Assembly (NCBI GenBank): GCA_964355795.1 | Contig: CAYHEQ010000001.1 | Span: 9,849 to 73,848, forward strand | Direction: 5' to 3' | Source of the DNA: an uncultured Candidatus Saccharibacteria bacterium | GTDB taxonomy: Bacteria; Patescibacteriota; JACPGU01 | DNA: 64,000 nt | Part shown: positions 14,390-41,360 of the stretch, in pieces | Layout: every line of letters begins with the position of its first letter | Position numbering within the stretch: position 1 is the first letter of the stretch | Position numbers and translations under genes: made by a program | The notes under the pieces: generated by a model | What the model saw: the letters and a program-made list of their open reading frames with translations, nothing else | What the model was told of the DNA's origin: nothing | The model's database searches: none

Positions 14390-14590
14390 GCGATGCGAAT
14401 GATGCGAATTATCATGCCTGCCCGCAATGCTCTCGCCCGAAGCTTTTCATATCTGTTTATAATTATCGTACGTAATATTTAGGGAGCAAACAATATGGGT
14501 GGGGCGCATAGCGAGGCGGGCGGGCGAATCTACGAATCTTGTGCGAATTTATTCGCGATAATTCGCGTTAATTAGAGAAAATTAGCGACT
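14390..14590. repeat. GCGAAT-rich intergenic repeat locus containing a 117-bp MITE-like element (14413..14529)
   Basis: gatgcgaatgatgcgaatt ... ctacgaatcttgtgcgaatttattcgcg flanks a 117-bp segment. That segment is about 97% identical to 36201..36315. Confidence 0.8.
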
Positions 14591-15053
14591 AGTATTTGCC
14601 CTTCCAGTCAGTGAAATAAGTCGTTTCAGAAAGTGTCTTCTTCCCTATTTTGTCTGTCCAGCTAACTGTTACTATCACTTTTTTCTTAAAAATAGTCGCG
14701 CCATCATAAATTATTCCGGAGGAAATATCTGTAATGACAATGTCCCTCGTAAAACCGGCCGGCAAAGGCTTCATCAATACGCCATTGAGACTAGCATTAT
14801 CCGTTCCCGCAAACCATTCGGAAGCCGTAGCCACATTATTATCGCGAATATTGCGAATACTTTCCACCGCGTCTTGGATGATATTGTAAGCTACACTCCT
14901 TTTCTGGGCTGTATCCCAACTGCGCACCGCCATTTGCGCCACAAAATGAAGCGACAGCATCACCGTCGTCAGAATAGCAAGACTAACGACGACCTCTATG
15001 AGCGTAAAGCCGTTTTTAGGTTTCAGATTGTAGGTTTTGGGTTGTAGGCTCAT
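14589..15053 (-). CDS. Type IV pilin-like protein (pseudopilin)
   Basis: NGFTLIEVVVSLAILTTVM prepilin motif. Confidence 0.75.
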   Translation of the reverse strand: MSLQPKTYNLKPKNGFTLIEVVVSLAILTTVMLSLHFVAQMAVRSWDTAQKRSVAYNIIQDAVESIRNIRDNNVATASEWFAGTDNASLNGVLMKPLPAGFTRDIVITDISSGIIYDGATIFKKKVIVTVSWTDKIGKKTLSETTYFTDWKGKY

Positions 15054-15055
15054 TT

Positions 15056-15667
15056 TTAGGCTCTGACCACATCCATAGTAATAATATGGGTAGCCGCGTT
15101 AATCGTAATTTTGTAACGAATTTTTGTGTCTGGAGAGCTGATGATAATCTCCGCCTTGTCTCCCGTAATAAGGGAGTTTGTGGCGTCCGACAAAGAGATA
15201 TTCCCCCCCGTCCTATTGCCCACCGCAAAAGAAATCCTTAGGGAATTATAGGAGGTGGAAACCCCATTTTTGTATAATTTAATATCGGCGATAGAAAGTT
15301 TTTTATCCGAAACGAATCTGTCCAAAACTGGGAGCCCTTCGGTCGCTTCAGAGCCTACCATAACTGTTGGGTTACCCAACGAATCGGTGGTGATAGACTC
15401 GTCCTGCACAGAAGAAGTTACGCATGACGCTGGACACAGGCTGATATTGAAAAAATAGGCAGTAGTTTTGGCGCTCCTTGGCGATAAAGATAGCGCTTGT
15501 GCTCCCCAAAGAACGCTTTGGAGATCTTTGGCGGCGTTGCGAACAACAATATGGCTCCTATAAGAGCGCATATTGGGGATAGCGATAGCGGTCAACGAGA
15601 CGATAATGGAAATCACCACTATCGCCTCTATCAAGGTGAAGCCTTTTTGTTTTTTGTTTGTTTGCAT
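15056..15667 (-). CDS. Type IV pilin-like protein (pseudopilin, GspH/FimT-like)
   Basis: KGFTLIEAIVVISIIVSLTAIAIP prepilin motif. Confidence 0.75.
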   Translation of the reverse strand: MQTNKKQKGFTLIEAIVVISIIVSLTAIAIPNMRSYRSHIVVRNAAKDLQSVLWGAQALSLSPRSAKTTAYFFNISLCPASCVTSSVQDESITTDSLGNPTVMVGSEATEGLPVLDRFVSDKKLSIADIKLYKNGVSTSYNSLRISFAVGNRTGGNISLSDATNSLITGDKAEIIISSPDTKIRYKITINAATHIITMDVVRA

Positions 15668-15675
15668 ACTTTTGC

Positions 15676-15800
15676 GCTTATTTTTTAGCGATGCTAATCT
15701 ACGAATAATATGCGCCTATAGCGAATGTCTATGCAAATAGATTCGCATTCCATTCGTAGATTCGCGCGCATTCGCATTTCATTAGCATCGCGCTATCATT
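15676..15800. repeat. GCGAAT-rich intergenic repeat locus with inverted termini AGCGATGCTAAT / ATTAGCATCGCGCT
   Basis: Multiple ATTCGCAT / TCGTAGATTCGC motifs. The termini are reverse complements of each other. Confidence 0.75.
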
Positions 15801-16632
15801 ATACACCCAAATACCATTGAATAATATATTTTCCGAAGAACAAAGCGACGAGAAATCCACAGACCAGAAAAGGCGCAAAAGGGATGATGTCTTGACGCGT
15901 TTTTTTCTTCAGCGCTATCAGAACGAGGCTAAAGACCGAGCCCAAAATAAAGGCCGAAAAAAGCGCGACTAAAATAAGCGGCCATCCTAACAGCAAACCA
16001 ATGAATGTCCCCAATTTCACATCACCCCAACCCATCCATTTTTCTTTTGAAATCAAAACGAGAAGCAGAAAAAATCCCCCGCCAATGATCGGTCCCAAAA
16101 TGAATTGCCCAATATCTGGACTATAGATGAAGAAATTGGCGCCAAAGTCATTATGCAAAACTAGATTTAATAGCCCCAGCAAAAGCAAAAGTAAAATCCC
16201 GGGCAAAACTATTTTGTCCGGGACTAAATAAGTCCTCGCGTCAATGAAAAATATCGCTACCAGCGCCGCCAATCCTAAACCGTAAATGAGAAGAAATATC
16301 GTTAAATTATAGCCGAGGAAAGCTCCGGCGAAACGAAAATAAAGTCCAGCGAAAAGAAGTCCCATGAGCAATTCTAGCGCCGGATAAAGTAGCCCAATTT
16401 TGTTTCGGCAGTGGCGACAACGACCACGAAACGCCAAAAACGCCAAAATCGGCACTAATTCCAGCGCCGTGAGAGTTTGCTTGCATTGGGGACAACGACT
16501 GCGACCGAAAATAATCCCCTCGTCGGTATTAAATCTGGTGATAACCACCGAAAGGAAACTACCGATGATCGTGCCCACCACAAAGTATAAAGCTAGATTG
16601 AAATAGAAGCTGGTCATAAGATTATTATACAA
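15799..16632 (-). CDS. pilD: Prepilin peptidase (A24 family)
   Basis: CPQCKQ..CRHCRNKI zinc-binding tetracysteine. Multi-TM protein with a conserved GWGDVKLG Asp motif. Confidence 0.85.
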   Translation of the reverse strand: MYNNLMTSFYFNLALYFVVGTIIGSFLSVVITRFNTDEGIIFGRSRCPQCKQTLTALELVPILAFLAFRGRCRHCRNKIGLLYPALELLMGLLFAGLYFRFAGAFLGYNLTIFLLIYGLGLAALVAIFFIDARTYLVPDKIVLPGILLLLLLGLLNLVLHNDFGANFFIYSPDIGQFILGPIIGGGFFLLLVLISKEKWMGWGDVKLGTFIGLLLGWPLILVALFSAFILGSVFSLVLIALKKKTRQDIIPFAPFLVCGFLVALFFGKYIIQWYLGV

Positions 16633-16737
16633 CCAAAAACGTTAGATGTTAATCTTTTATTATTAGGGCTTACGCGTTTGATCTTATCTTTTTTTACCGT
16701 TCAATGTCAGGCGTTCTCTATTGGTTGCTGCGTCTTT

Positions 16738-16776
16738 TGAGGTTCGACCTCTGGGCATCCTTTGAGGTCGAACCTC
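16738..16776. repeat. Hairpin repeat family copy (loop variant B) located immediately downstream of the major pilin gene
   Basis: gaggttcgacctctgggcatcctttgaggtcgaacctc. The loop is the reverse complement of the loop in the copy at 29004..29043. Confidence 0.8.
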
Positions 16777-16881: not shown

Positions 16882-17325
16882 TCAACTGCTGGTGCAAGCG
16901 GCCGCAATAGCAACGTCTTTCCCCCCGCTACCGACAGAATAAGTGGCCGTACCCCCTGTCGGGATATTCTCAAGTGTGGCTACTAAAGCAAAATCTGTGG
17001 CGTTAGCGCAATATTTATAAAACTCTGTGGCGTTTGGCGCTACAATATCTTTCTCCACATATCCAAGCTTTCTTAGAGAAGTCGCTACAGCTGGATCCCA
17101 AATAATAGCCTTGAAAGAACCCGATGCCGCTGGATAAGTCCCCATATCCAAAGAATACTGCAATACTGCCTTAGAAACATAATCCAAATCCGCCTTTCTC
17201 TTCCCGTCTCTGGCCCTAGACCGAGCCGACGAGAAAGAAGCCAAACCAATAGTCGCCAAGATAGCGATAATGGCAATAACTATCAAAAGTTCAATTAAGG
17301 TAAAACCCTTTTCTTTTTTTTGCAT
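16882..17325 (-). CDS. pilA: Major type IV pilin (PilA-like)
   Basis: KGFTLIELLIVIAIIAILATIGL class III signal, small 147-aa protein, C-terminal Cys pair (YCANATDF...AAACTSS). Strong RBS AAGGAG 5 nt before the ATG. Confidence 0.8.
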   Translation of the reverse strand: MQKKEKGFTLIELLIVIAIIAILATIGLASFSSARSRARDGKRKADLDYVSKAVLQYSLDMGTYPAASGSFKAIIWDPAVATSLRKLGYVEKDIVAPNATEFYKYCANATDFALVATLENIPTGGTATYSVGSGGKDVAIAAACTSS

Positions 17326-17341
17326 AATTTCTCCTTTACTA

Positions 17342-17393
17342 TTAATTTCTTAATTTCTTAATTTCTTAATTTCTTAATTTCTTAATTTCTTAA
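17342..17393. repeat. (TTAATTTC)x6.5 octanucleotide tandem repeat in the 5' leader/promoter of the major pilin gene
   Basis: Six perfect 8-bp units plus a partial unit. They end 16 bp upstream of the pilin start codon, just upstream of the RBS. Confidence 0.9.
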
Positions 17394-17446
17394 CCCTATC
17401 GTAATACAATAACCTCTCTATGTTAAGGGCCACTTTTCAACAGGCT

Positions 17447-18791: not shown

Positions 18792-19871
18792 TCAAAGTAA
18801 TGCCTTAATCGTCTCCTTCGTCACCTTGCCTTGAGCCAGTAGTTCCGTCAGCGATTGCTCAAAGGTAGTCATCCCCTCGCTCTTCCCTGTTTCTATAATT
18901 GACTTCAACTGATTAGTTTTGCCTTCTTTAATGGAGCTGATGATCGCTGTATTCGCCACCATCACTTCCGTGGCCGGAATCCGTCCACCATGCACTTTTG
19001 GCAATAATCTTTGAGCGATCACCCCCAGTAAGACATTGGCCAGCTGGGTTCTCACTTGATTTTGGTAATGTGGCGGGAAAGCGTCAATAATCCTATCGGC
19101 TGTGGTCGCCGCTGAACCAGCGTGGACGGAAGCGAAAACCAGATGACCAGTTTCCGCGATAGTGAGAGCCGCCTCCATTGATTCGCTGTCTCGCAACTCC
19201 CCTATGAGAATAACATCAAAATCTTCTCGCAAAGCCGACCGTAGGGCTTCCTTGAAGCTTTTGGTGTCTCGCCCCACCTCTCTTTGATTTATAATACACT
19301 GTCGGGGACGAAAAACATACTCTATTGGATCTTCAATGGTCAAAATATGCGCCGCTCTGGTTCTATTAATTTCTTCCAAGATAGCCGCGATAGTCGTTGA
19401 TTTGCCCGAACCGGTAGGCCCTGTGACTAGAACCAATCCCTGATGACGGTGAGCAAAACTCTGCACAGAATCTGGCAAACCCAATTCATTAAAACTACGA
19501 ATCTCACTGGGGATCAAACGAATGGCGCAAGCCACGCTCCCTTTTTGTAAAAATATATTGGCGCGAATGAAAGCGCGATCTTTGAAGATATAGGAAAAAT
19601 CCAATTCTTTTTGTTCTCGGAAAGTCTCCTTCTGCTCGGGAGTCAAAAGCAAGTGCACCAATTTCTCTATGTATCCCGGTGTTAATCTAGGCCTATCAAC
19701 CAAAGGCAACAATTTGTTATCCACCCGCAGGACAGGGTAATAGCCGGCCGAAAGATGAATATCGGAAGCCCCTTTCTCCAATCCCTCATTGAGCAAAGAA
19801 AATATCTCTGATTTATTATCAGCCAGCGCTGGAATGTCTAAGAAATCATTGTATTCATTTTTCTGTACCAC
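18792..19871 (-). CDS. pilT: Twitching motility/retraction ATPase PilT
   Basis: 359 aa with Walker A GPTGSGKSTT, Asp box, Walker B and His box. Confidence 0.85.
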   Translation of the reverse strand: MVQKNEYNDFLDIPALADNKSEIFSLLNEGLEKGASDIHLSAGYYPVLRVDNKLLPLVDRPRLTPGYIEKLVHLLLTPEQKETFREQKELDFSYIFKDRAFIRANIFLQKGSVACAIRLIPSEIRSFNELGLPDSVQSFAHRHQGLVLVTGPTGSGKSTTIAAILEEINRTRAAHILTIEDPIEYVFRPRQCIINQREVGRDTKSFKEALRSALREDFDVILIGELRDSESMEAALTIAETGHLVFASVHAGSAATTADRIIDAFPPHYQNQVRTQLANVLLGVIAQRLLPKVHGGRIPATEVMVANTAIISSIKEGKTNQLKSIIETGKSEGMTTFEQSLTELLAQGKVTKETIKALL

Positions 19872-24414: not shown

Positions 24415-24487
24415 TTTGCAACTATGTAATTGCTTAAGCGATGCGAATCTACAAATAACATGCGAATATAGCGAATGTCTATGCGAA
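24415..24487. repeat. GCGAAT-rich repeat, left flank of the GxxExxY gene
   Basis: taagcgatgcgaatctacaaataacatgcgaatatagcgaatgtctatgcgaatc. Confidence 0.7.
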
Positions 24488-24844
24488 TCAAATTTTTGTA
24501 TTTAATATCCTATTGGGCTTAAGATGGCTATTTCTAAAATTAACTATCATCCCCAACTTCAAATTATTAATTTCTAGGTATCTTTTTACTTGAAAATAAT
24601 CTTCTTTGTCCGCAAAATTTTTTGCTTTGCATTCTACTACTATTTTATCTTCTATGAGAAAATCCATTCTATTCCCACTGCCATCATTTAATTCTCTTTT
24701 ATAAGCAACACCTTTATTCTGCAGTTCCTTCTCTATTTCATCACAATATTGTTTTTCTTTACAGAATCGCCCTAGTCTATTTTGAACTGCAAAAAATATC
24801 CCATTTATTTTGTAAGACAATTCCGGATAAATTACATCCTTCAT
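24488..24844 (-). CDS. GxxExxY-family protein (PD-(D/E)XK superfamily)
   Basis: INGIFFAVQNRLGRFCKEKQYCDEIEKEL ... IVVECKAKNF ... LKLGMIVNF fits the GxxExxY family profile. Confidence 0.65.
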   Translation of the reverse strand: MKDVIYPELSYKINGIFFAVQNRLGRFCKEKQYCDEIEKELQNKGVAYKRELNDGSGNRMDFLIEDKIVVECKAKNFADKEDYFQVKRYLEINNLKLGMIVNFRNSHLKPNRILNTKI

Positions 24845-24849
24845 TTATT

Positions 24850-24910
24850 ACTTATTATTCGCATTATATTCGTAGATTCGCATGAGAATTCGCATTATTC
24901 GCATCGCTTA
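24850..24910. repeat. GCGAAT-rich repeat, right flank of the GxxExxY gene
   Basis: ttattcgcattatattcgtagattcgcatgagaattcgcattattcgcatcgcttattac. Confidence 0.7.
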
Positions 24911-27076
24911 TTACTGCCTGGCTTTGAATACTTCTTTGGCAAATCCCGGTGGCGGGGACAAGACTACTCGCGGATCGTATTGGAAATCTTCGGCTGGTTG
25001 CCAATCCAGATATTTAGGATCGTTAGGCTTTATTGAACCCTTGCAAATTGGTGGCAAGGCGTTATCGCAAGACCAGAGTAGCTCTTTCGGACCAATGTAA
25101 TTGCGATAAAGTTGGAAAGCTTCTGATCGCGAAGAAACATTCCACCACCCGCTAGCGATGACCACTCCATGAATGACTAATTGTTTGTCATAAGTCTCTC
25201 CGCCACAAGCAGCGGGGGTAATAGCGCAAGAACCGCTAATAAAGCTCCCCTTTTGACCGGTATTGGCTTTGTCAGAATAGATGAAGAATACGCCCTCCAG
25301 CCTTCCTACCCTCGGACTGACATTGACATTGCCATTTTTGACAATGAAGCCCACCATATCTTTGTTTTTGTTCTCGTATTGCAGACTGTCGTTAATAGAA
25401 AGATCGCCATCAACAACAACCGTTCCTCTGCCACGCAGGGTCATCGGCGAACCGCTATTGTTACCTATCGTCAAACCGTCACTATAATAAAGAGCGCCTC
25501 CTTCAGGGATATTGGTGGGATTGAGGTCTATTGTCGCGCTAGTGAGACTACCTTTGCCATAACTAGTTTTGGCTATTTTGGCGCCATTAATTAGTTTCGT
25601 CCGACTTTTTTCTATAATTCCGCAAGCCGAATTTTCTTGACAGACTTTGTCTTCATCTAGACCAAAACTGGAAGGACTATTAGAGCTGATGCCGTATGCG
25701 CCCACCGTCCAATCGCTCGCTGATTTTGATTGAGACGCTATATTGCCACCAGAACCGATGATGTAGAGAACGCTAGAAGGATTTCTCAAGTTCACTCCCT
25801 TGCGACCAAAAACGCTACCCCCGGTGGATTCTTTGAGGAAAGAATAAGTAACGATGTCTATGTCTGTTTTGGTAGTTTGCTCTGTCCCCGTCGTAAAGGT
25901 CGCGGTATTGGTAATTACTGAATTGGCTGTCACCTCTTTGGCAATAGTTACTTCTACTTCAAAATGATAATTGGTGGCGTGGACCAAAGAATTGATCGTT
26001 ATGGACAAAGAATTAGTCCCCGCAGTAGCGACGCTATAACTAGCGGAAATGATGTTAGCGCTTTTTACCCTGATACCCTTGATGGCAGACGCTGGCGTAA
26101 CCGTATCGTTGATGGTCAAAGTTCCTCCATCGGTAATATTATCCACCGCTACATCAAGATCGTAAGTGGTGGTGAAATCAATGCCCGGATTAATGAGGAG
26201 AGAAGTATCGTCGCTTTTACTCGCTGTTATCAGAGCCGACATCGGACTGATGAGCAAGACTTCCGCCGCCGAGTATTGCCAATGAATCTTGTCTTCAGAA
26301 ATAGCGGCTACTCCTTTGACTAAATACATGGCGGGATCAACCAAGGAGTTGCCCTTGTTGTCAAAAACTAGCGCTTCCGCCGTAGAACGATCAATATTTT
26401 TGAGATCGGACATTTTGTAAAAAGTGAGCGCGAGATTAGTCGTAGAATTGGCAAAAACAGTAAATCTCCTTCCCTCTTTCGGTTGCGGAACATAATATTG
26501 AACGCCTCCGATGGTTATCGTATCAGATCCGCCACTATCCACGGAGATGAAGTGTGTGCCGACTTTCAGATTAGAAATATTAAAATTCCCACTAGTAGGC
26601 GTGGCCGTTACCCCATCTATCAAAAGAGGGGCGATGATCGGACCGCTGTCGCTATTTTTCATCTCAATGCTGGCCGATCCCAAACCGATTGCTTCCGTAG
26701 CTGTCAACATTACTGTCTTGGAAATTTCCGCGCTAGCACCATTGATGCAAAGTAATTTGTAGATGGCCGAACCTTGCGGAACAAAAGTTTTCACTACTCC
26801 AAGAGGAGCGCCCCAACTACTGACGATAGTGGCGCCTAAGTCATCTATAATCCTGCATGAAGTAGCGCTGGAAACAGTGTAATAGAGAGTTATTGGGTCC
26901 ATCGGGTTTTTGATAGTGACATTTTTGAATGGCAGACCGCTAATACCATCAAAAACAAATTTCGTGATCGTCGGCTCGCCGACCGCCCGCGCGGAAGTGG
27001 CGCCAAAAATAATCCCCGCTACCAACGCTGGGAGAAAAACTAGCCCGAAAATAATGGATGAATATCTTTTGTTCAT
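24911..27076 (-). CDS. Large secreted protein (721 aa), possible adhesin
   Basis: N-terminal signal peptide (IIFGLVFLPALVAGIIFGATSARA). Ser/Thr/Gly/Asn-rich beta-type composition. No catalytic motifs. Confidence 0.65.
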   Translation of the reverse strand: MNKRYSSIIFGLVFLPALVAGIIFGATSARAVGEPTITKFVFDGISGLPFKNVTIKNPMDPITLYYTVSSATSCRIIDDLGATIVSSWGAPLGVVKTFVPQGSAIYKLLCINGASAEISKTVMLTATEAIGLGSASIEMKNSDSGPIIAPLLIDGVTATPTSGNFNISNLKVGTHFISVDSGGSDTITIGGVQYYVPQPKEGRRFTVFANSTTNLALTFYKMSDLKNIDRSTAEALVFDNKGNSLVDPAMYLVKGVAAISEDKIHWQYSAAEVLLISPMSALITASKSDDTSLLINPGIDFTTTYDLDVAVDNITDGGTLTINDTVTPASAIKGIRVKSANIISASYSVATAGTNSLSITINSLVHATNYHFEVEVTIAKEVTANSVITNTATFTTGTEQTTKTDIDIVTYSFLKESTGGSVFGRKGVNLRNPSSVLYIIGSGGNIASQSKSASDWTVGAYGISSNSPSSFGLDEDKVCQENSACGIIEKSRTKLINGAKIAKTSYGKGSLTSATIDLNPTNIPEGGALYYSDGLTIGNNSGSPMTLRGRGTVVVDGDLSINDSLQYENKNKDMVGFIVKNGNVNVSPRVGRLEGVFFIYSDKANTGQKGSFISGSCAITPAACGGETYDKQLVIHGVVIASGWWNVSSRSEAFQLYRNYIGPKELLWSCDNALPPICKGSIKPNDPKYLDWQPAEDFQYDPRVVLSPPPGFAKEVFKARQ

Positions 27077-30768: not shown

Positions 30769-30784
30769 ATATTTCTTTATTTTT

Positions 30785-30866
30785 TATTTTTCCCGACGCA
30801 CTATATTTTTTAATATAATGAAGTCGGGATCCCGATTTCGCGATAGCGAACATCGGGACTTATTTT
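30785..30866. repeat. About 82-bp conserved intergenic element, copy 2 of 2, abutting the TPR gene start
   Basis: About 95% identical to 4116..4196. Contains the TCGGGATCCCGA palindrome and the AT-rich TATATTAAAAAATATA box. It ends about 20 bp before the ATG at 30768. Confidence 0.8.
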
Positions 30867-30872
30867 CTTGAC

Positions 30873-31265
30873 TTATCGTAAAACTGGAGAAGCTTCCATC
30901 GATTTTATTTCTTTAATGTCTTTAGAATTAAAAATTTTCTTCTCTCCAAGCTTATCCACTACTTTTTCTAATTTTTCGTCCCTTTTCCTCATCATAACAA
31001 TCAAATCGCTCTTCAAATTAATCATTTTGTCTGTCATGAAACTCTTGGTGACCATTTGATTCCTTACGCTATCTATATCGGCTTGCAGATCAGTTTTGAC
31101 GGCTTGCAGATCAGTTTTGACACTCTGCAGGTCAGTTTTTACACCCTGAAGATCGGTTTTTATTTCCTTAATATCCCCATGAATACCGCCAAATTGATCA
31201 GTAAGGAAATCCATGAATTTCTCATCATTCATGATGCTAGATTGTTTGGTATTTTCTCCTGTCAT
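30873..31265 (-). CDS. Small coiled-coil protein with 7-aa tandem repeats (KTDLQxV x4)
   Basis: IKTDLQGVKTDLQSVKTDLQAVKTDLQA is encoded by a 4 x 21-bp tandem repeat. Confidence 0.5.
   Translation of the reverse strand: MTGENTKQSSIMNDEKFMDFLTDQFGGIHGDIKEIKTDLQGVKTDLQSVKTDLQAVKTDLQADIDSVRNQMVTKSFMTDKMINLKSDLIVMMRKRDEKLEKVVDKLGEKKIFNSKDIKEIKSMEASPVLR
31080..31163. repeat. 4 x 21-bp tandem repeat (coding)
   Basis: ggcttgcagatcagttttgac x2, followed by two diverged units. Confidence 0.85.
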
Positions 31266-31406: not shown

Positions 31407-33989
31407 CTATTTCACCGGATTCAATATGTGCTTCGGCACAGTGATTGTTACGGCCTTAGTGTTATCGGTAATAATGACTGCGGTAGCGCCACTAGTGGCC
31501 GTGGCCACCAGATTCACTGCGTAAGTGCTGTTGGATTTTAATATACTGAAACTGCAATTGGTCGTAACCGAAGAACAATTGGGAAGACTGGTTGGCAAAA
31601 TGACAGTCCCATTTTCTTTAACTTGCCAATTATAGCCAGAGGTCACCGTCCCTCCCACTGCTACCATCTCTGGCTTCACCGTTACCGTATCCCCTACTCG
31701 GAGAGAGCCGGAAATAGTCCAGTCGCCAGTAGTTTCTTGAGTGGGAGTCACCGAAGCGCCAGCGTTGACGATAGCGCCATCGGTAATGATGTTCGCTCCC
31801 GCTCTGCCCACATCCGGCTTGATGCTCAAAGAGGCCGAAGAGGGAGCGGGAGGATTAAGCCCTGCTGTTTTAGTCACTGTTCCCATCGCCCCGCGACTGT
31901 CTGTTACGGTCAAAGTAAAGGAATAAAGTCCTCCTCCATTAGTATACTCGGGATATGTATAAGCGAGGTCTTTTTTGGTAAAAAGAAGGAATGGAGAAGG
32001 ATCGTCAGAGATTTTTTGGGAATCAGAGGAAGTGTAAGTATAGATATAAGCGGGGTCCCAAGACTTTGTTACCTTCCATGCCCAACTCGTAATTGTATCC
32101 CCATCGGGATCGGTTGATTGATCGTAATATTTGAAATCCATCGTCGTCCCGAGCTGCGTGCCATCAAACTTCGCCACAGGAGGGCTATTCACAGATGTAT
32201 AACTACACACAAAACCAATTGTTCCGCCAGCAGTAAGTGTTCTTATTGATGGAGGAATAAATGTGTATCCCGTCTTAGCCGGACAGGTGGCGGTATAAGA
32301 GCCAATTGGAGCAGTTGTTGAAACAGCAACGGCTACATTCGGCGTAACCACCGTCCCCGTATAGGTTGTCGTAGCAGGACTGGGACCCTTAACTGTGATA
32401 GTTGTATCAGGAAGAGTGGAGTTGATGTTGATGGTGCCAGGTAATACTTTGTCCACCGTAATTGTTTTCGTCGCTGTGTCACTAAACGCCCCTCGACTAT
32501 CCTGAACCATAAGAGACGCTGTATATGTCCCTACGGACGAATACTTATGGAGAGGTTTTTTTTCAACACTATCAATTATCCCGTCATTATTAAAATCCCA
32601 AAACCAACCAGTAATACCGTCGCCATCAGGATCGGTGGAGGTATCTGTAAATTGCACTGAAAGTGGTACAGAGCCAGAAATGGGGCTGGCAACAAACCTG
32701 ACTAAAGGAGATTTATTGGGAAAGGACAATCCTCCGCAACCATCCGTTCTAGATATAACAACAGTACCGTCACCAGCGACTTCTCTAGCGCCTCCTGTGC
32801 CAATGCCACTTCCACCAATACCGCCGTTAGCAGTAACTGTCTTAAATCTCACATCTCTTCCGGCTTCAAAAACTTGCTCGCCACTCCATGTCCCGTCTTC
32901 TTTCTTCGATAATATCTTTATTCTCCCACCACCACCAGCATAAGGTGGAAAATAGCTACCAGCTACCCCGTCGCCACCATTAGCGCTAATCATACCTTCG
33001 TGATTGAAGCTATTTGTAACAATACAAATAGATCCACCAGAGCCACCACCGCCTATTCGTCCACCATTACCTATCTCACCTATCTTGCCATTAGCAGAGA
33101 TACTACCATCTTTATCTATGATGATTTTGTTAGCAGATATTACTATGAGACCACCACCGCTACCGCCAGTATAATCACCATTATAGCCATAAGATCCTAC
33201 TCCCATGCCACCTCCACCTCCACTGCCCCACTGGTCTGGATTATTCTTATCGCCATAAGTATATGACCCAACATCCGCTCCTAAACCTCCATAGCCTCCG
33301 CCCGAACCGGCATATACATAAATAGAGTTAGTAAATGACCAACCTCCACCTCCAGGACCATAGCCATACTGCTTACCAGTGCCACCACTATACCCAAATC
33401 CATCTGCGGTTATTTTACCGCCAGAGTTAATTATCAGTTCTTTATTGATGATGAGTTGCATACTACCAACATCGCCGGGAGATCTTGTCTTTTGGGTTAA
33501 AACACCGTCGTTTATTATAGTTAAGCTATTGAAATAATGCTCTCCATCAATTTGTACCGTTGAACCATTAATAACAACATCTTTCTTGTCGTACTGAACA
33601 TTAGTTGATGAGATAACTCCCGATGGAAATACGGCGCTAATAGGCACAAAATTAGCCATCAAAGCAGTGTTGCCTTGACCAAAAGTGAAGGTCGCAGTAC
33701 TAGTGACCTTGCTAGAAATATTGCCATAAATAGGGTTAGAAGTAAAAGTCCAACCATAAAATTTATATCCCAGATTCGCAGTGGCGGTAATGGTCCTGGT
33801 GGAATTTTCATTCGTCCCTCCGCCAATCACCACGCCATACTCGCTCGGACCAGCCGTCAATGTGAGAGTATAAGTCGTTGCGGCTTGGGCTTTTTGGTTT
33901 TGCGTACCCCAAGCCATTACTGCGGCAATAATTAGCGCAATTCCGATGACGAAAATAGCTAACTTCTTTTTGTCTAAAGTTTTTATCAT
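31407..33989 (-). CDS. Large secreted adhesin-like protein (860 aa) with InlB B-repeat, Gly-rich region and two PKD domains
   Basis: Conserved leader MIKTLDKKKLAIF...AQAA, B-repeat GYKFYGWTFTSNPIYG, and long GGSGGG tracts. PKD motifs WFWDFNNDG and STDPDGDTITSWAW are present. Confidence 0.75.
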   Translation of the reverse strand: MIKTLDKKKLAIFVIGIALIIAAVMAWGTQNQKAQAATTYTLTLTAGPSEYGVVIGGGTNENSTRTITATANLGYKFYGWTFTSNPIYGNISSKVTSTATFTFGQGNTALMANFVPISAVFPSGVISSTNVQYDKKDVVINGSTVQIDGEHYFNSLTIINDGVLTQKTRSPGDVGSMQLIINKELIINSGGKITADGFGYSGGTGKQYGYGPGGGGWSFTNSIYVYAGSGGGYGGLGADVGSYTYGDKNNPDQWGSGGGGGMGVGSYGYNGDYTGGSGGGLIVISANKIIIDKDGSISANGKIGEIGNGGRIGGGGSGGSICIVTNSFNHEGMISANGGDGVAGSYFPPYAGGGGRIKILSKKEDGTWSGEQVFEAGRDVRFKTVTANGGIGGSGIGTGGAREVAGDGTVVISRTDGCGGLSFPNKSPLVRFVASPISGSVPLSVQFTDTSTDPDGDGITGWFWDFNNDGIIDSVEKKPLHKYSSVGTYTASLMVQDSRGAFSDTATKTITVDKVLPGTININSTLPDTTITVKGPSPATTTYTGTVVTPNVAVAVSTTAPIGSYTATCPAKTGYTFIPPSIRTLTAGGTIGFVCSYTSVNSPPVAKFDGTQLGTTMDFKYYDQSTDPDGDTITSWAWKVTKSWDPAYIYTYTSSDSQKISDDPSPFLLFTKKDLAYTYPEYTNGGGLYSFTLTVTDSRGAMGTVTKTAGLNPPAPSSASLSIKPDVGRAGANIITDGAIVNAGASVTPTQETTGDWTISGSLRVGDTVTVKPEMVAVGGTVTSGYNWQVKENGTVILPTSLPNCSSVTTNCSFSILKSNSTYAVNLVATATSGATAVIITDNTKAVTITVPKHILNPVK

Positions 33990-35383: not shown

Positions 35384-35543
35384 ATGTCTTCTCTAAAATC
35401 TTTTTTCTAATATCCATTTTTTTACAAATTACGGTAATATCTTTTGCCATAGACTTTCCTCTACTTTTCCTTTTTGTTTTTTTTGATTCACTATATTGTG
35501 TACTTTGATCCCTTATTTTCTTAATTTCTTATTTTCTTAGCCC

Positions 35544-36095
35544 CTACGGCGCCAAAGTGTCCAAGACGATGAACGAATCGCCAGATTTGGCGGAATAGTT
35601 GCACCAGATCATATCCCCGGAATAGCCCGTTACTATGGCAGTGGCGCAACCCCCCGTTGTTGGCGCAGAAGCGGTAGTGCCATCAGAGCCAGCCTTCATA
35701 CCGCTATATTTGAATCCTGTCGGTGTGGAGAATTTGACATCTGTGGACTTGGCTAAACTTTCAGGATTGTTGACGGTTAAAGTGAATTTGACTGTATCGC
35801 CCGCTTTCGCCGTCGCCGTGTTGTTTCGCGCAGATACTGGCGCGATGTTTTCTGCCTTCGTATGCACCGAAACACCTTGATAATTGAAATTGTAGCCGAC
35901 ATCAATAGGTTGTCTATCGGCCGCGAATGTTCCCAGTTTGAATCCTCCCAAGGCCACGCCAGCCAAAAGCAAAAGGCCTACTACATATATAGTAGCCTTT
36001 CTGTTGGAAAGTTTTTTGGAAAAACCCTTGAGAGTGGAGGCTCTTTTGATGCGATTGCTCCTGCGCACGATTTTTTCAAAATTGAAAGATAACAT
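35544..36095 (-). CDS. Secreted/membrane-anchored protein with Thr/Ala-rich beta domain
   Basis: Signal anchor IYVVGLLLLAGVALGGF. DUF11-like composition. Confidence 0.5.
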   Translation of the reverse strand: MLSFNFEKIVRRSNRIKRASTLKGFSKKLSNRKATIYVVGLLLLAGVALGGFKLGTFAADRQPIDVGYNFNYQGVSVHTKAENIAPVSARNNTATAKAGDTVKFTLTVNNPESLAKSTDVKFSTPTGFKYSGMKAGSDGTTASAPTTGGCATAIVTGYSGDMIWCNYSAKSGDSFIVLDTLAP

Positions 36096-36180
36096 CTTTT
36101 TTGTATTACTGTTATGAAAATTTTGTTTTGAAATATCTATTGCTAACTGACATTAAGCCTGACTTAAAATCTTGCTGAAC

Positions 36181-36430
36181 CGATGCTAATCTGCGAATGG
36201 ATGCCTGCCCGCAATGCTCTCGCCCGAAGCTTTCATATCTGTTTACAATTATCGTACGCAATATTTAGGGAGCAAACAATATGGGTGGGGCGCATAGCGA
36301 GGCGGGCGGGCGAATATGGCGAATATTTATGCGAATTAATTCGCATGGGATTCGTAAATTCGCATCGCGTTCGTAGATTCGCATGGCATTTCAAATTCGC
36401 ATCGCATTATTCGTGTCGCTTAACTCAAAA
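36181..36430. repeat. GCGAAT-rich repeat locus containing the second 115-bp MITE-like element copy (36201..36315)
   Basis: atgcctgcccgcaatgctctcgcccgaagctttcatatctgtttacaattatcgtacgcaatatttagggagcaaacaatatgggtggggcgcatagcgaggcgggcgggcgaat, followed by four ATTCGCAT octamers. Confidence 0.8.
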
Positions 36431-36862: not shown

Positions 36863-36927
36863 ATTCTAAGAACGGTTTTGCCTTAATATTCGAGCGATTA
36901 GCGTTAATTCGAGAAAATTAGCGATTC

Positions 36928-37136: not shown

Positions 37137-37184
37137 TGACGGGAGTAGGATTTGCACCTACGAAGGCCGAAGCCAGCAGATTTA
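37137..37184 (-). other. Exact 44-nt duplicate of the 3' part of tRNA-Tyr (3' part of anticodon loop through acceptor 3' strand) with no 5' half
   Basis: gggagtaggatttgcacctacgaaggccgaagccagcagattta is identical to 37248..37291 of the intact tRNA-Tyr. It is joined directly to a double-hairpin element. Confidence 0.75.
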
Positions 37185-37214
37185 TCACCCTGCGGGTGAC
37201 CACCCGTAGGGTGG
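37185..37214. repeat. 30-nt double-hairpin element, copy 1 (TCACCC-tgc-GGGTGA / CCACCC-gta-GGGTGG)
   Basis: tcaccctgcgggtgaccacccgtagggtgg. It sits exactly at an anticodon-loop position (GACU | element | UAAAUCU). Confidence 0.75.
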
Positions 37215-37243
37215 CAGTCTTCTTTAACCAATGATTTTCAAAA

Positions 37244-37326: not shown

Positions 37327-37342
37327 ACCATTTTGAAAATCA

Positions 37343-37606
37343 TTAAATTCCCAATCTTTTAAAAAGCATCTCCTTTTGCTGGTTGTTATTTTTAAGCTCA
37401 TTTTCTCTTTTTCTAGCCAGAGTATATGTTTCGTAAGCTTCATAGTATACGAGCCTTAATGGCGCATACATTTTGGTCGAAATAACTTTTTTGTTATTAT
37501 GTTGCAATAATCTCGTTTTCAAATCACGCGTCGAACCTATATAGCGCCATTTTTTTATGGTACTTTTCAATAAGTATACATATCCATTCATATTGTTTTC
37601 TTGCAA
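37343..37606 (-). CDS. Small GIY-YIG nuclease-domain protein (YhbQ/UPF0213-like)
   Basis: GYVYLLKS...YIGSTRDLKTRLLQHNN...YYEAYET...ARKRENELK is the GIY-YIG signature. ATG at 37591 is the likely start; 37606 is a TTG. Confidence 0.7.
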   Translation of the reverse strand: MQENNMNGYVYLLKSTIKKWRYIGSTRDLKTRLLQHNNKKVISTKMYAPLRLVYYEAYETYTLARKRENELKNNNQQKEMLFKRLGI

Positions 37607-37618
37607 ATAAGAGATTTA

Positions 37619-37648
37619 TCACCCTGCGGGTGACCACCCGTAGGGTGG
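37619..37648. repeat. 30-nt double-hairpin element, copy 2 (identical to copy 1)
   Basis: tcaccctgcgggtgaccacccgtagggtgg, directly 3' of a tRNA-Tyr-like 5' half. Confidence 0.75.
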
Positions 37649-37683
37649 CAGTCTGCCCCGTTTGACCGCTTCGGTACCCCACC
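37649..37683 (-). other. Orphan tRNA-Tyr-like 5' half (acceptor through anticodon nt 33), truncated by the double-hairpin element
   Basis: GGUGGGGUACCGAAGCGGUCAAACGGGGCAGACU closely resembles the canonical bacterial tRNA-Tyr 5' half. No partner 3' half with a CCCCACC acceptor strand is present. Confidence 0.65.
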
Positions 37684-37768: not shown

Positions 37769-37779
37769 CGCCTATGCAA

Positions 37780-37852: not shown

Positions 37853-37889
37853 ATAGGCTTTGGCGGGCGGGGAAATGCTCTACCAACTG

Positions 37890-37920
37890 CCACCCCTGCG
37901 GGTGGTCACCCGAAGGGTGA
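37890..37920. repeat. Double-hairpin element, copy 3 (inverted, loop variants), next to a duplicated tRNA-Thr D-arm fragment
   Basis: ccacccctgcgggtgg tcacccgaagggtga. The stems are conserved and the loop nucleotides changed. It is preceded by tgctctaccaactg, a partial copy of the tRNA-Thr D-arm. Confidence 0.7.
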
Positions 37921-37937
37921 AGCTACTCCTTGCCAAA

Positions 37938-38072: not shown

Positions 38073-38759
38073 TTATTCCACCCGCAATTCCGCCATTTTT
38101 TCCGTCGCTTCTTTAATCAATTGCTGATAATCCTCATTATCTTTTTCCAAAACTAAAGCTTTCTTGTAGCTATCCAAAGCCTTGTCATACTGCCGTAAAG
38201 CCGCGTAAGATAACCCCAGATTGATATAGCGATGAGGCACCAAACCATTGAGCTGAATAGATCTCTGATACGCCTCTATCGCTTCCACGTATCGCCCTTG
38301 ATTGAAAAGCGCCAAGCCAAGATTGTTGTGAATCAGATCATTGTTTTTGTCATACTTCAAAGCCGTCCTGAAAGCTTCTTTGGCGTCAGCGAAATTTTCC
38401 TGTTCTATATATATAACGCCCAATTTGTTGTAAAGCTTAGGATTTTTCGGATCTTTCTCAATAGTAGAAATTAAAATCTTTTCCGCCTCTGTATGATTTT
38501 TCTGATCGATCAATTCTCCCACTTTTTCCAACACTTCGTCGGCAGAATTGCTTTTCTGTTTGACAAATCTCGGGATGGACTTGCTGGTTTTTTTACTCTT
38601 TTTACCGTTGGTTTCTTCGGAAGCTTCGTATCTATTGAGCTTCGCCTCGCCATTACTATTGCCCCGCCTTTTCAAAAGCTCCTCGGAAACTTCTGGCATT
38701 TTGCGAGCCACAACAAAAACCAACGCCGCCAATGCTACAACTAGAATGATGATTTCCAT
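38073..38759 (-). CDS. TPR-repeat membrane protein (paralog)
   Basis: N-terminal TM segment (IIILVVALAALVFVV), then three or four TPR repeats (LYNKLGVIYIEQENFADAKEAFRTALKYD ...). Confidence 0.65.
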   Translation of the reverse strand: MEIIILVVALAALVFVVARKMPEVSEELLKRRGNSNGEAKLNRYEASEETNGKKSKKTSKSIPRFVKQKSNSADEVLEKVGELIDQKNHTEAEKILISTIEKDPKNPKLYNKLGVIYIEQENFADAKEAFRTALKYDKNNDLIHNNLGLALFNQGRYVEAIEAYQRSIQLNGLVPHRYINLGLSYAALRQYDKALDSYKKALVLEKDNEDYQQLIKEATEKMAELRVE

Positions 38760-38884
38760 ATACTTTTAGTTAATAGCGATGCGAATGATACGAATTTTTC
38801 ATGCGAATATGGCGAATCCCTATGCGAATCCAATTTGCATGAATATTCGTAGATTCGCATGTCATTCGTAGATTAGCATCGCGT
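38760..38884. repeat. GCGAAT-rich repeat locus with inverted termini
   Basis: agcgatgcgaatgatacgaat ... ttcgtagattcgcatgtcattcgtagattagcatcgcg. Confidence 0.75.
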
Positions 38885-39727
38885 TTATGAAATGAACAGA
38901 TTCTCAAAAAAAATCCTCTTGGAGGCATTACTCTCCAAGGCGCTTTCCACTTTCAACAGCTTTTCCAAAACCTTGGCTATTCTACCATAAGGCAATGATT
39001 TTTCCAAGTCTCCCCAAGAATCTTTTTCAAAATCCCCCAATTCCCCTATCCCTTGCGTATTCAAAGCCAAATTTCTCAAAACCCAAATCATCATATCAAT
39101 GTCTTTTTGCGGTTCTTCTTTCTCCGCCAGCTCCTTGGCTCTGATTAATTTCAAGAAATCTTTTTCGGATAACAAATCACGGCAAATAGCGATGGCGTTT
39201 CCCCCTTCTTCTCCGTCTGTTGCGGAAAAATCTTCGTAAAAATAGACTGATTGCGCTCGAGACAAAATAGTCTTGGGCATACCGCTCTTATCCCCAGCGG
39301 TTAAGATGATGATAGACTTCGCCGGTGGTTCCTCCAGGGTTTTGAGGAGCGCCTCACAAGCTTCATTGGTCAGCTTCTCCGCATTGTTTATTATCAGAAA
39401 TTTCCACTCGCCCTTGGAGCGAGAAAGATTGATGCCCCTTTGCGCCTCCCGAATATCGTCTATCAAAATATGCTCGTCGCCTTTGTCTATCATATGAGTA
39501 TCAACAAAGGTGCCCGACGAAGCTAGGCGACAATGATGACATTTTCCACAAGGGCTATCCCCCTTCCTTTCTTGACATTGAAAATATTGGGAAAGATATT
39601 TGGCAAAATCTTTCTTCTTTTCGCCCTTTGGACCGTAAAAAATATAGGCGTGAGAAAGCCTCTCTGACTCCAAAGCTTTTTGAAAAAATCCCAATTGTCT
39701 CGGGTATTCTTCTTTAATATCCACCAT
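38885..39727 (-). CDS. holB: DNA polymerase III delta-prime subunit
   Basis: HAYIFYGPKG Walker A-like, zinc module C..C..C..C, EACEALLKTLEEPP box. Confidence 0.8.
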   Translation of the reverse strand: MVDIKEEYPRQLGFFQKALESERLSHAYIFYGPKGEKKKDFAKYLSQYFQCQERKGDSPCGKCHHCRLASSGTFVDTHMIDKGDEHILIDDIREAQRGINLSRSKGEWKFLIINNAEKLTNEACEALLKTLEEPPAKSIIILTAGDKSGMPKTILSRAQSVYFYEDFSATDGEEGGNAIAICRDLLSEKDFLKLIRAKELAEKEEPQKDIDMMIWVLRNLALNTQGIGELGDFEKDSWGDLEKSLPYGRIAKVLEKLLKVESALESNASKRIFFENLFIS

Positions 39728-39860
39728 AGAAGATTATTATACCATTTCTCCAAATATGGTATACTAGGTTCTACGGATTACAGATAGTACAGATGTACGG
39801 ATAATGCAAACATATCCTATCTGTAATCTGTAAATCCGTATTATCCGTAATCCGTAGAGT

Positions 39861-40178
39861 ATGAAATTTGAAGACAAAGAATTAGAATGCCAAGATTGCG
39901 GAGCCAAATTCACTTGGGATGCTTCCGAACAAGCTTATTTTGCCAAAAAAGGCTTCAAAGAAGTTCCTCGCCGTTGTCGCGCCTGTCGAGCGAAAAAGAA
40001 AATTGAAAAGGAAGCCGAAGAGGCTAAGGAAAAAGAAATCACCTGCGCTATTTGCGGAGTCAAATCAGTATCAACGCACGAGATAGCTCCGGATGAAGAA
40101 ACGATATGTATGGACTGCGTTCTGAAAGAACAAATGGAGCCAACTGTTGCCCCTCCGCTAGAAACCCCAGCAACCTAG
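39861..40178 (+). CDS. Zinc-ribbon protein (two CxxC pairs twice)
   Basis: CQDCGAK...CRACRAK and CAICG...CMDC. Confidence 0.5.
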   Translation: MKFEDKELECQDCGAKFTWDASEQAYFAKKGFKEVPRRCRACRAKKKIEKEAEEAKEKEITCAICGVKSVSTHEIAPDEETICMDCVLKEQMEPTVAPPLETPAT

Positions 40179-40195
40179 AACCGACCTAGAACAAA

Positions 40196-40226
40196 AAAGA
40201 GATTCCTAACGGAATTTCTTTTTTCA
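40196..40226. terminator. Bidirectional terminator hairpin between the zinc-ribbon gene and rpmB
   Basis: aaaaagagattcctaacggaatttctttttt is a stem-loop flanked by A-runs and T-runs. Confidence 0.5.
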
Positions 40227-40271
40227 TACTATCATTTTTCTCACCAGAGATTAGAAGCTAAAAACTGAAAA

Positions 40272-40460
40272 CTATAAACTAATTTTCCCCTTGCTTTTCA
40301 TACACTTCGTACACAGCTTCACGCGAATCTTCTTCCCGCGGATTATTAGGCTGGTTGGCTGAATATTGGCGTTGAAAACTCTTCTCGTATGACGATTGGA
40401 GTGACTAACGTTATTGCCGGTCGTTCTCGTTTTTCCGCATGCTTGACACATCTTTGACAT
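40272..40460 (-). CDS. rpmB: 50S ribosomal protein L28
   Basis: MSKMCQACGKTRTTGNNVSHSNRHTRRVF matches L28 (M.K.C...GK....GN.VSHS). GAGG RBS 7 nt upstream of the ATG at 40460. The ORF-track extension to 40535 is probably not translated. Confidence 0.7.
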   Translation of the reverse strand: MSKMCQACGKTRTTGNNVSHSNRHTRRVFNANIQPTSLIIRGKKIRVKLCTKCMKSKGKISL

Positions 40461-40559
40461 TGTTGTTTCCCTCAAGTAATATGGATAATAGAAATGTAAC
40501 TTAGTTATTTTATCAAAAAGATTTGCTTTTGGCAAGAAGGAAAGGCAAAGGAAAGATAT

Positions 40560-41246
40560 ATGTTGCTCCTCAATCTATTCTCCCAGCCTCTTGACCTCGC
40601 GGCGGTTTTGATCGCCATCGTCATCGGTCTGACTGTCCACGAATTTGCTCACGCTTGGATGGCGGCTCGCCTCGGCGACTTGACCGCCAAATACGCGGGA
40701 AGATTATCTTTGAATCCTTCGCGTCATTTTGATTTCACCGGCACATTATTTTTGCTTTTGGTCGGCTTTGGTTGGGGCAAGCCAGTGCCGATCAATCCCA
40801 ACGCTCTGCACGGTCGCTACGCTGAACTCAAAGTTTCCTTGGCTGGACCTTTTTCTAATATTTTAATGGCGCTCATTTGCTCCATCCCTATCGCTATCGC
40901 CTTGGGACTCGGCCTCTCTTACGAAGCTAATATCTATCTGCATTTCATTAGGGTTATCGCGGAGATCAATGTTTTCTTTGCCGCCTTCAATCTCTTACCT
41001 ATCTTTCCGCTGGATGGATCGGCCATCATCAAAGCTCTCGCGCCTCGCTCTTGGCATTATAAATTAGCCGATTGGGAGAGATCCGGTATCATCATTCTTT
41101 TTGGCATCCTTTTTGTGGAAATGGTCTTTCGCATCAATATCCTTTTTCCTTTTATTTATGCAATCAGCAGATTTTTTCTTTTCATTATCGCTTTTGTTTT
41201 GCAACCATTTTCGTATCTCTCCGCATATCTCTCTTCCCTATTTTAA
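40560..41246 (+). CDS. Membrane zinc metalloprotease (HExxH; site-2 protease/M50-like)
   Basis: HEFAHAWMAARLGD in the first TM region, multiple TM segments, and LPIFPLDGS, which is similar to the M50 LDG motif. Confidence 0.6.
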   Translation: MLLLNLFSQPLDLAAVLIAIVIGLTVHEFAHAWMAARLGDLTAKYAGRLSLNPSRHFDFTGTLFLLLVGFGWGKPVPINPNALHGRYAELKVSLAGPFSNILMALICSIPIAIALGLGLSYEANIYLHFIRVIAEINVFFAAFNLLPIFPLDGSAIIKALAPRSWHYKLADWERSGIIILFGILFVEMVFRINILFPFIYAISRFFLFIIAFVLQPFSYLSAYLSSLF

Positions 41247-41360
41247 TCGCGATGCGAATAGCGCAAATTTGAAATGCCGTGCGAATATAACGAATTTTTA
41301 TACTAATAATCTCGTTCGCATAAGATTCGTAGATTCGCATACCATTCGTAGATTAGCATC
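41240..41360. repeat. GCGAAT-rich repeat locus with inverted termini
   Basis: cgcgatgcgaatagcgcaaat ... ttcgtagattcgcataccattcgtagattagcatcgc. Confidence 0.75.

Follow-up and report, generated by a model that had tools for sequence, protein, structure and literature searches.

Palindromic GCGAAT box arrays of a Saccharibacteria contig are probably gene-less copies of an element that carries a GxxExxY nuclease gene

The GCGAAT-rich intergenic repeats of a 64,000-nt stretch of an uncultured Candidatus Saccharibacteria genome (GenBank assembly GCA_964355795.1, contig CAYHEQ010000001.1, positions 9,849 to 73,848; the whole of this stretch is referred to as the window) appear, with a probability of roughly 0.6, to be gene-less, compact copies of a palindromic box-array element whose full-length form carries a gene for a GxxExxY protein, a PD-(D/E)XK nuclease, at its dyad centre. 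The loci point to a little-studied and probably mobile nuclease cassette rather than to ordinary regulatory sites, and it can be said with high confidence that they belong to a single dispersed family of elements that is homologous to GxxExxY cassette arms. An initial annotation made from the sequence had listed seven GCGAAT sites, all of which exist and are far beyond chance, but those at 24415 and 24850 belong together as the left and right arm of a single element, so that the window repeats comprise six composite palindromic elements (A-F) and one solo arm. The grouping of the loci in that annotation into a single repeat family whose ends are reverse-complementary was borne out, the outer ends reading (A)GCGATGCKAAT on the left and the reverse complement, ATTMGCATCGC(T), on the right; what it missed was the host repeat as a whole palindromic element, found in many metagenome-assembled genomes (MAGs) of the candidate phyla radiation (CPR) and sharing the arms of the GxxExxY cassette. 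The elements, to which no strand is assigned, and the gene are located as follows (window coordinates; z, z score of the predicted RNA fold):

14389-14589: element A, with left terminus AGCGATGCGAAT, boxes split by a nested foldback unit, and variant right arm ATTCGCGATAATTCGCGTTAATTAGAGAAAATTAGCGAC
15687-15791: element B, compact, 105 nt, RNA fold z -4.4 and -3.5
24437-24908: element C as a whole, two arms parted by the GxxExxY gene
24437-24488: left arm of element C, five boxes, the last base common to the GxxExxY stop codon
24488-24844, minus strand: GxxExxY protein gene, 118 aa, PD-(D/E)XK fold, exactly at the dyad centre of element C
24857-24908: right arm of element C, five boxes, terminus GCATCGCT, repeat families I8 and I16
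36180-36419: element D, left arm with a nested foldback unit, extended right side with repeated termini ATTCGCATCGC
36888-36925: solo right-arm variant ATTCGAGCGATTAGCGTTAATTCGAGAAAATTAGCGAT, resembling the right arm of element A
38775-38883: element E, compact, 109 nt, exact pan-CPR terminus ATTCGTAGATTAGCATCGC, RNA fold z -4.8 and -5.5
41249-41363: element F, compact, 115 nt, RNA fold z -1.9

Left and right termini were paired across all fetched loci (L numbers) and sorted by arm distance. Thirty-nine arm pairs were at most 140 bp apart (compact) and four were 141-300 bp apart and held unrelated nested inserts, whereas each of the four independent pairs 300-1500 bp apart (the window, L054, L066 and L082) contained exactly one open reading frame (ORF), a GxxExxY homologue, the homologues between arms being 53-58% identical to the window protein. 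The repeat pair that had been described as bracketing the GxxExxY gene was thereby confirmed as element C, and the bracketing is not incidental, this being the sole ORF type found between the arms. The same cassette architecture is built from other boxes in L005 (GCGAAA) and L017 (ACTGATTA-type). The generality of the association was tested in 80 metagenomic loci with GxxExxY relatives at 29-64% identity, for which 150 nt on each side were compared: a flanking inverted repeat with z>=4 was present at 41 of 73 GxxExxY genes (56%) versus 2 of 123 other ORFs of the same loci (1.6%). The GxxExxY arms consist of NC(G/T)AAT arrays upstream and ATT(C/A)GN arrays downstream, and the boxes are GCGAAT, GCTAAT and ACGAAT for the closer proteins, ACGAAT, ACTAAT and CGAATT for those at 33-42% identity, and CGCAGA, CGCTGA, CGCAAA and CGCGGA for the most distant. 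A gene-less compact palindrome of the same type lies within 3 kb of a cassette at six unique loci, and in L095 and L054 the compact copy amounts to the cassette arms joined, in near-identical sequence on one contig. A miniature inverted-repeat transposable element (MITE) would have a cognate transposase-encoding partner with the same ends; gene-bearing copies with the ends of the compact palindromes exist, but their gene encodes a PD-(D/E)XK nuclease, which is no known transposase. Only two distant GxxExxY homologues were found in the plasmid collection, the case from Persicobacter with weak flanking symmetry. Tandem GxxExxY pairs ~1 kb apart on one contig were observed in L092, L115, L116 and L162.

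The window GxxExxY gene is co-directional with its neighbours, and its product matches PF13366 PDDEXK_3 (1.3e-18, 67.8 bits, cut-off 22) and TIGR04256 (5.6e-18, 65.4 bits, cut-off 35). The family alignment keeps D61, E71-x-K73 and the GxxExxY motif, leaving the D...ExK signature intact, and the AlphaFold model (predicted local distance difference test score, 93; predicted template modelling score, 0.85) has a Cas4/RecB-like fold. PADLOC gave no defence-system match and PHROGs only a match to a family of unknown function. PDDEXK_3 is a very large family described as 'function unknown' and as having undergone 'multiple transfers' (PMC3424549). None of the mentions of GxxExxY in the literature searched dealt with its biology, nor was any account of these elements found there, and a survey of CPR rRNA insertions names 23S_rRNA_IVP and neither the GxxExxY family nor these repeats.

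Each arm in the window consists of four or five 8-nt boxes, ATGCGAAT alternating with CTACGAAT or ATAGCGAAT, at a box-to-box start distance of 8-12 nt (mean ~10, about one helical turn), so that box pairs give a 19-20-nt period (families D7 and D8). The octamer spacing of about 18-20 bp pointed out earlier is accordingly real, with a 19-nt period at 36340-36406 (family D7). The box ATGCGAAT was counted 26 times in the window compared with 4.12 +/- 1.97 times in shuffled sequence (0 of 100 shuffles reached 26), 22 of the 26 falling within elements, and the terminus GCGATGCKAAT (at most one mismatch) 15 times compared with 2.79 +/- 1.46. Plain GCGAAT is only mildly enriched (68 versus 48), and genome-wide word bias is therefore not the cause. 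Small, non-coding, dispersed and multicopy (six copies of 105-240 bp, plus the solo arm, in 27 kb, and 39 compact copies in other genomes), and with the terminal inverted repeats GCGATGCKAAT...ATTMGCATCGC, the family has these properties of MITEs. No element or nested insert was covered by Rfam covariance models, either at gathering thresholds or at E<=5.

The family extends well beyond the window. The exact 19-mer right terminus ATTCGTAGATTMGCATCGC was present in 84 stretches from ~41 assemblies of a species-representative genome collection, where ~9 were expected by chance. Its carriers include ~38 MAGs, nearly all labelled as CPR lineages, among them Moran-, Sacchari-, Pacei-, Doudna-, Andersen-, Falkow-, Uhr-, Komeili-, Buchanan-, Gracili-, Peri-, Jorgensen-, Nomura-, Brenner- and Taylorbacteria; a few others carry the label Gammaproteobacteria or Bdellovibrionales, three matches in high-GC non-CPR MAGs are isolated, coding and look like chance, and there were no matches in viral contigs. 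Further boxes lie just upstream of the 19-mer in 84 of its 92 occurrences in all sequence examined, window included, and the palindromes that bear it adjoin unrelated genes across MAGs. Alignment of 12 elements from 10 genomes gave a minimal consensus of ~78 nt in which the boxes are invariant or nearly so, the spacers and the centre being variable. Such conservation of box sequence at helical spacing is the pattern that would be expected of a protein-recognition array, and it lends support to the earlier suggestion of a reiterated protein-binding site, the boxes being conserved in sequence while the spacers vary.

Most element termini have an ATG at a distance of 0-7 nt or a stop codon at 0-5 nt, and the spacer left after removal of a compact element has a median of ~8 nt, indicating that compact elements occupy ordinary operon junctions; 18 lie between tandem genes, three between convergent genes and none between divergent genes. 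The elements are co-oriented with the upstream gene, and in 69 of the 73 loci the GxxExxY gene and its upstream neighbour share one direction. In L172 (2459-3000; ENA ERZ4903072) a GxxExxY cassette whose arms have CCGAAT boxes separates rpsF from ssb in the conserved rpsF-ssb-rpsR operon, and a second GxxExxY gene, with CACGGAT-type boxes downstream of it, lies just upstream of rpsF; the same arrangement is found in ~24 contigs from several samples. The rpsF-ssb cassette, together with the co-direction of gene and neighbour, points to insertion followed by expression through read-through transcription.

The genes around the window elements (type IV pilus genes, holB, tRNA genes and an M50 peptidase gene) are nearly all on one strand. 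Element A occupies the spacer between two pilin genes, its left end 9 nt from the ATG of ORF 13745-14380 (-) and its right end overlapping the stop codon of ORF 14589-15053 (-), and element B is flanked by a pilin gene (15056-15667 -) and a prepilin peptidase gene (15799-16632 -). The right terminus of element C, GCATCGCT, ends 2 nt from the stop codon of ORF 24911-27076 (-). Element D lies between ORF 35544-36095 (-) and tRNA-Trp, its ATTCGCATCGC termini at 36358-36368 and 36395-36405 and the boxes there at a 19-nt period, and the solo arm is found between tRNA-Trp and the L33 gene. Element E separates a tetratricopeptide repeat gene (38073-38759 -) from a holB-like gene (38885-39727 -), the stop codon of which is 2 nt off, and element F, with a 6S-like RNA and tRNA-Pro downstream of it, starts 2 nt past the M50 peptidase stop codon (gene 40560-41246 +). 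The 6S RNA-like match (41429-41598 +; RF00013, 35 bits, below the gathering score of 46.4, E 8.6e-4), located between element F and tRNA-Pro, is preceded by a TTGCAC...TATAAT-like promoter at ~41380-41415, and a lone ATGCGAAT box lies directly past tRNA-Pro (41714-41721 -).

Presence and absence were compared with related strains, as had been advised. In L088, a syntenic distant relative (GCA_016188915.1; PilN 49% identical), the junction matching element C is 81 bp long and has no element, and the junctions orthologous to A and B hold ATTCGT arrays of different build. Contigs from Hainich groundwater, the habitat of the source bacterium, are 99.3-100% identical to the window (a single Logan run and ENA assemblies ERZ1292616-18) and showed no polymorphism within that population, and some sites are conserved between species. 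L088 also has two near-duplicate spacers, of 119 and 132 bp, with ATTCGT arrays ahead of pilin genes, and, just past the pilin genes, a 23S_rRNA_IVP (four-helix-bundle) gene at 19326-19718; the window has none there.

There is good confidence, from the geometry and the near-identical arms within one genome, that the compact copies either arose from cassettes by internal deletion or represent empty sites that may receive a copy of the gene. With the gene at the dyad centre and the compact elements equal to the arms joined, the layout appears to fit the geometry of homing genes. Lineage spread, placement in ancestral operon junctions and turnover between distant relatives together argue, with moderate confidence, that the elements are or once were mobile. 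That the GxxExxY nuclease itself recognises the boxes and drives their propagation is put forward tentatively, with odds that at best approach even. In such a mechanism, the box arrays would be sequence-specific recognition sites for the nuclease, which as a dimer would cut at or near the palindrome, and the gene would be copied into empty palindromes by homology-directed repair through the ~50-bp arms (homing); alternatively, the nuclease may mobilise arm pairs, as the repetitive extragenic palindrome (REP)-associated tyrosine transposase (RAYT) does with REP doublets forming hairpins (REPINs). The cassette would in either case be expressed through read-through from the upstream gene.

Several observations weigh against a mobile nuclease cassette. 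A PD-(D/E)XK nuclease alone is not an established transposase, and no enzyme of that fold is known to transpose DNA unaided; homing, for its part, leaves the arrival of palindromes at new intergenic sites unexplained. The elements have no consistent target-site duplication of fixed length such as MITEs have; their flank consensus, N-TT-T/A on both sides, is inverted and not direct, with TA on both sides in a minority only. Empty-site alleles were not found, all Hainich contigs over sites A and C being of the same strain with the same occupancy. Two GxxExxY proteins that are each found on ~24 contigs (P0060 and P0093) have a single genomic context each, which means that recent hopping of gene-bearing copies is not seen, and near-identical flanks at apparently orthologous sites in different species-level MAGs (L015/L045/L071 and L036/L049) indicate that elements can persist for long.

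The main rival to the nuclease-cassette explanation, judged unlikely, is that selection maintains the palindromes in operon junctions as cis-elements of the host, either RNA hairpins (terminators, attenuators or processing sites) or arrays for a conserved CPR host protein, the GxxExxY genes being opportunistic free-standing homing genes that use them as safe harbours. Such a role would suit elements B and E, which fold as long imperfect hairpins (z -3.5 to -5.5; F less so), the T-rich flank past the terminus (GCATCGC-N-TT-T/A), the abutting stop and start codons, a box sequence kept across distant lineages, the orthologous sites in several species-level MAGs and the ATTCGT arrays upstream of orthologous pilin genes in L088. 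However, the consensus fold of the 12-element alignment has 27 pairs with 0 compensatory changes and a covariation term of +0.15, the G/T variant in the terminal box (GCGAAT versus GCTAAT) is uncorrelated between arms, and in the window the complementarity of a left arm to its partner right arm does not exceed that to right arms from other elements; the lack of compensatory pairs and of excess within-element arm complementarity argues against RNA structure under selection. Large nested insertions are moreover tolerated at varied positions, there is free variation in box number and in length (69 to 240 bp), L088 has no element at its orthologous PilN junction, and box type follows the GxxExxY subfamily and not the host. 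An outward promoter or intrinsic terminator was rejected, the scans being at background and two TTCGCA -35-like hits misfitting the gene starts, and a DNA-uptake-sequence reading was dismissed as the boxes are not enriched outside the elements.

The emphasis of the initial annotation, on ordinary transcription-factor operator clusters with a 115-bp MITE as the sole mobile item, is disfavoured as highly improbable. The 19-20-bp box period (family D7) and two insert copies that are 97% identical with differing flanks speak for it; set against it are a full palindrome with identical 19-mer ends by unrelated genes in ~38 nearly all CPR-labelled MAGs, the position of most copies after stop codons in tandem pairs and of none between divergent genes, the identity of the arms with GxxExxY cassette arms, and an insert that lacks a target duplication. 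An RNA-guide array of the tandem interspaced guide RNA (TIGR) or clustered regularly interspaced short palindromic repeats (CRISPR) type is scarcely credible. Short alternating repeats do occur in CPR genomes, where TIGR-Tas is common, and TIGR units have 8-12-nt repeats and 9-nt variable spacers in direct tandem arrays by a Nop-domain gene (PMC12045711). The spacers of the window family, however, are 2-5 nt long and partly conserved between genomes, the boxes are arranged in inverted orientation around a dyad, no neighbouring gene is a Tas or Cas gene and there is no Rfam match; a TIGR-Tas or CRISPR-like reading was ruled out on array geometry.

The unit nested in elements A and D is a second, unrelated GC-ended foldback, seated within a box (NNN^CGAAT) and lacking a target duplication. 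Its two copies are located as follows:

14417-14524, plus strand: nested foldback copy 1, 108 nt, CCTGCCCGCAATGC...AT-rich core...GCGAGGCGGGCGGG, in element A
36204-36310, plus strand: nested foldback copy 2, 107 nt, in element D, family D18

The insert had been described as 115-117 bp long in two loci; it is present twice, at the shorter lengths just given. The earlier count of about three differences holds, the copies, in the same orientation, being 97.3% identical with two substitutions and one indel. The unit has the ends CCTGCCCGC...GCGGGCGGG around an AT-rich core of 60 nt and folds end to end, modestly better than shuffles (z -2.2 and -1.9). Both copies split a box at ATG^CGAAT in differing box contexts, and excision in silico restores ATGCGAATCTACGAAT in element A and ATGCGAATATGGCGAAT in element D, the latter as in element E; insertion was precise, and there is no target-site duplication at either copy. 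Small outward-reading ORFs, unlike between the two copies, were dismissed as non-coding. Terminal inverted repeats, two near-identical copies and differing flanks are shared with MITEs. No target duplication was seen, though, and no longer relative or coding partner that could represent a parent transposon was found, so the 'classic MITE layout' did not hold up. In the wider search a 25-mer of the unit gave 0 matches in metagenome contigs and no further copies were found, but termini of the form CCYGCCYGC...GCRGGCRGG are also present in five other loci of other genomes, on units with lengths of 20, 36, 103 and 145 nt. Several of these relatives reside within different repeat arrays, and the one in L097, the first 15 nt of which equal those of the window unit, splits a box (CTA^CGAAT) in a GxxExxY cassette arm. 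Given relatives of 20-145 nt with like ends and no target duplication, the unit is a member of a small nested foldback family and not a classic MITE with target duplication. As to the 'recent mobility' claimed for it, an independent nested insertion stands, but the claim was overstated for only two 97%-identical copies with no empty-site allele found. The chance that the two ~110-nt copies belong to a segmental duplication or are an assembly artefact is negligible: nothing beyond their similarity speaks for it, a larger duplication is refuted by flanks that part at once on both sides save for the shared CGAAT box, and site A is reproduced in an independent assembly (L171, 99.94% identical).

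Other repeats were also observed in the window. A sister box-array palindrome with TACGGAT/TACAGAT boxes and termini TCTACGGAT...ATCCGTAGA lies at 39769-39858, with a solo right arm at 1929-1973, so that the window has compact elements of at least two box families; boxes of this sister type (CACGGAT, CGCAGAT) also lie beside further GxxExxY genes, namely those in L172, L152 and L148. An 87-aa GIY-YIG ORF (37343-37606 -; PF01541, 1.2e-14; weakly matched to homing endonucleases in PADLOC and PHROGs) lies between two 43-nt GC-rich palindromic repeats that are 100% identical (37178-37220 and 37612-37654), a third repeat (37884-37926) being inverted and diverged, all inside a tRNA-Tyr/Thr cluster; this ORF is a second small nuclease gene flanked by repeats in the window. 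Near-perfect palindromes of 28-34 nt, ATTCTCACATTCTCAAGAATGTGAGAAT, at 42962-42995, 43277-43310 and 45301-45333 flank a 90-aa MarR/ArsR-type winged-helix ORF (42994-43266 -) and the adjoining 647-aa gene, and are probably operators of this regulator. The intergenic palindromic family GAGGTTCGACCTTAGCTTCTAAACTTCTCCAAGGTCGAACCTC (~40-58 nt) occurs at 13224, 16739, 27094, 27137, 28028, 29006, 29056 and 34697, one copy of which Rfam spuriously matched to mir-140. Tandem octamer runs, (TTTCTTAA / AATTTCTT)n, at 11407-11449, 17326-17402, 35501-35549, 45876-45924, 51922-51981 and 52006-52062 are intergenic, lie by minus-strand genes (one, for instance, immediately past the start of 16882-17325) and have TTAGCCC as a frequent ending. 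Direct repeats include a 300-nt pair at 99% identity (2551-2850 / 3001-3300) inside ORF 1976-3979, which suggests an internal protein repeat, a 125-nt pair at 87% (4082-4206 / 30751-30875) and a 157-nt pair at 78% (27625-27781 / 33648-33804).

CPR genomes are small and tightly packed, and repeats in operon junctions across many CPR lineages need explaining. The link between nuclease and box array (56% versus 1.6% in controls) provides the PDDEXK_3 family with a concrete candidate role and a defined putative DNA substrate; if the nuclease does read arrays of short, programmable-looking boxes, this would amount to a sequence-reading nuclease of a new type and to a novel kind of mobile element in bacteria. 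A wider proposition, possible but doubtful, is that a widespread, so far unrecognised class of palindromic box arrays has GxxExxY (PDDEXK_3) nucleases as its dedicated enzymes, a REPIN-RAYT-like partnership on a restriction-endonuclease fold in which the nuclease would read arrays of 8-nt boxes and would spread itself and gene-less palindromes via operon junctions of CPR and numerous other bacteria. The large numbers of 'GxxExxY protein' genes and the intergenic box-array repeats would both be accounted for in this way. Many GxxExxY homologues are on contigs <5 kb, and the elements therefore probably break metagenomic assemblies.

Among known systems, the REP/REPIN-RAYT elements of Escherichia coli and Pseudomonas are like the window family in being short palindromic extragenic repeats dispersed in intergenic spacers, with inverted pairs, one small enzyme gene flanked by inverted repeat copies, gene-less units that are far commoner, and the possibility of long residence. 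They differ in that their enzyme is an HUH Y1 transposase (RAYT), whereas the gene flanked here matches PF13366 and TIGR04256 only and encodes a PD-(D/E)XK nuclease, and in that a single REP hairpin takes the place of the arms of 8-nt boxes at helical spacing. REPINs are lineage-specific, unlike the terminus of the window family, which is identical across distant CPR lineages. The MITEs Correia/NEMIS (Neisseria), RUP and BOX/ERIC are similarly non-coding, 70-240 bp long and present in many copies with terminal inverted repeats, occupy operon junctions, are co-transcribed as hairpins and have longer gene-bearing relatives; the window family differs from these in having no consistent target-site duplication, a partner gene that is no known transposase, and an internal box array. 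Free-standing homing endonuclease genes and ORF-bearing 23S rRNA intervening sequences (23S_rRNA_IVP) likewise have a small selfish ORF central in a palindromic site with inverted repeats, coexisting ORF-less and ORF-bearing versions and, as proposed for the window cassette, read-through expression, and PD-(D/E)XK homing enzymes such as I-Ssp6803I exist. The elements described here differ in lying in protein-coding operon junctions, not in rRNA or introns, and in having empty sites that are multicopy and dispersed, the homing likeness coming from geometry alone. For the nested foldback, the SDR (small dispersed repeat) elements of cyanobacteria (Elhai et al. 2008) are reportedly very small GC-rich or palindromic units nested in repeat arrays, non-coding and lacking a target duplication; the window unit is of another lineage and sequence, with a 60-nt AT-rich core and relatives of 20-145 nt. 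By analogy, the system as a whole would in its working most resemble REPIN-RAYT and the pairs of MITEs with autonomous elements, with a geometry like that of homing genes and ORF-bearing rRNA intervening sequences, while being a member of neither REPIN-RAYT nor TIGR/CRISPR.

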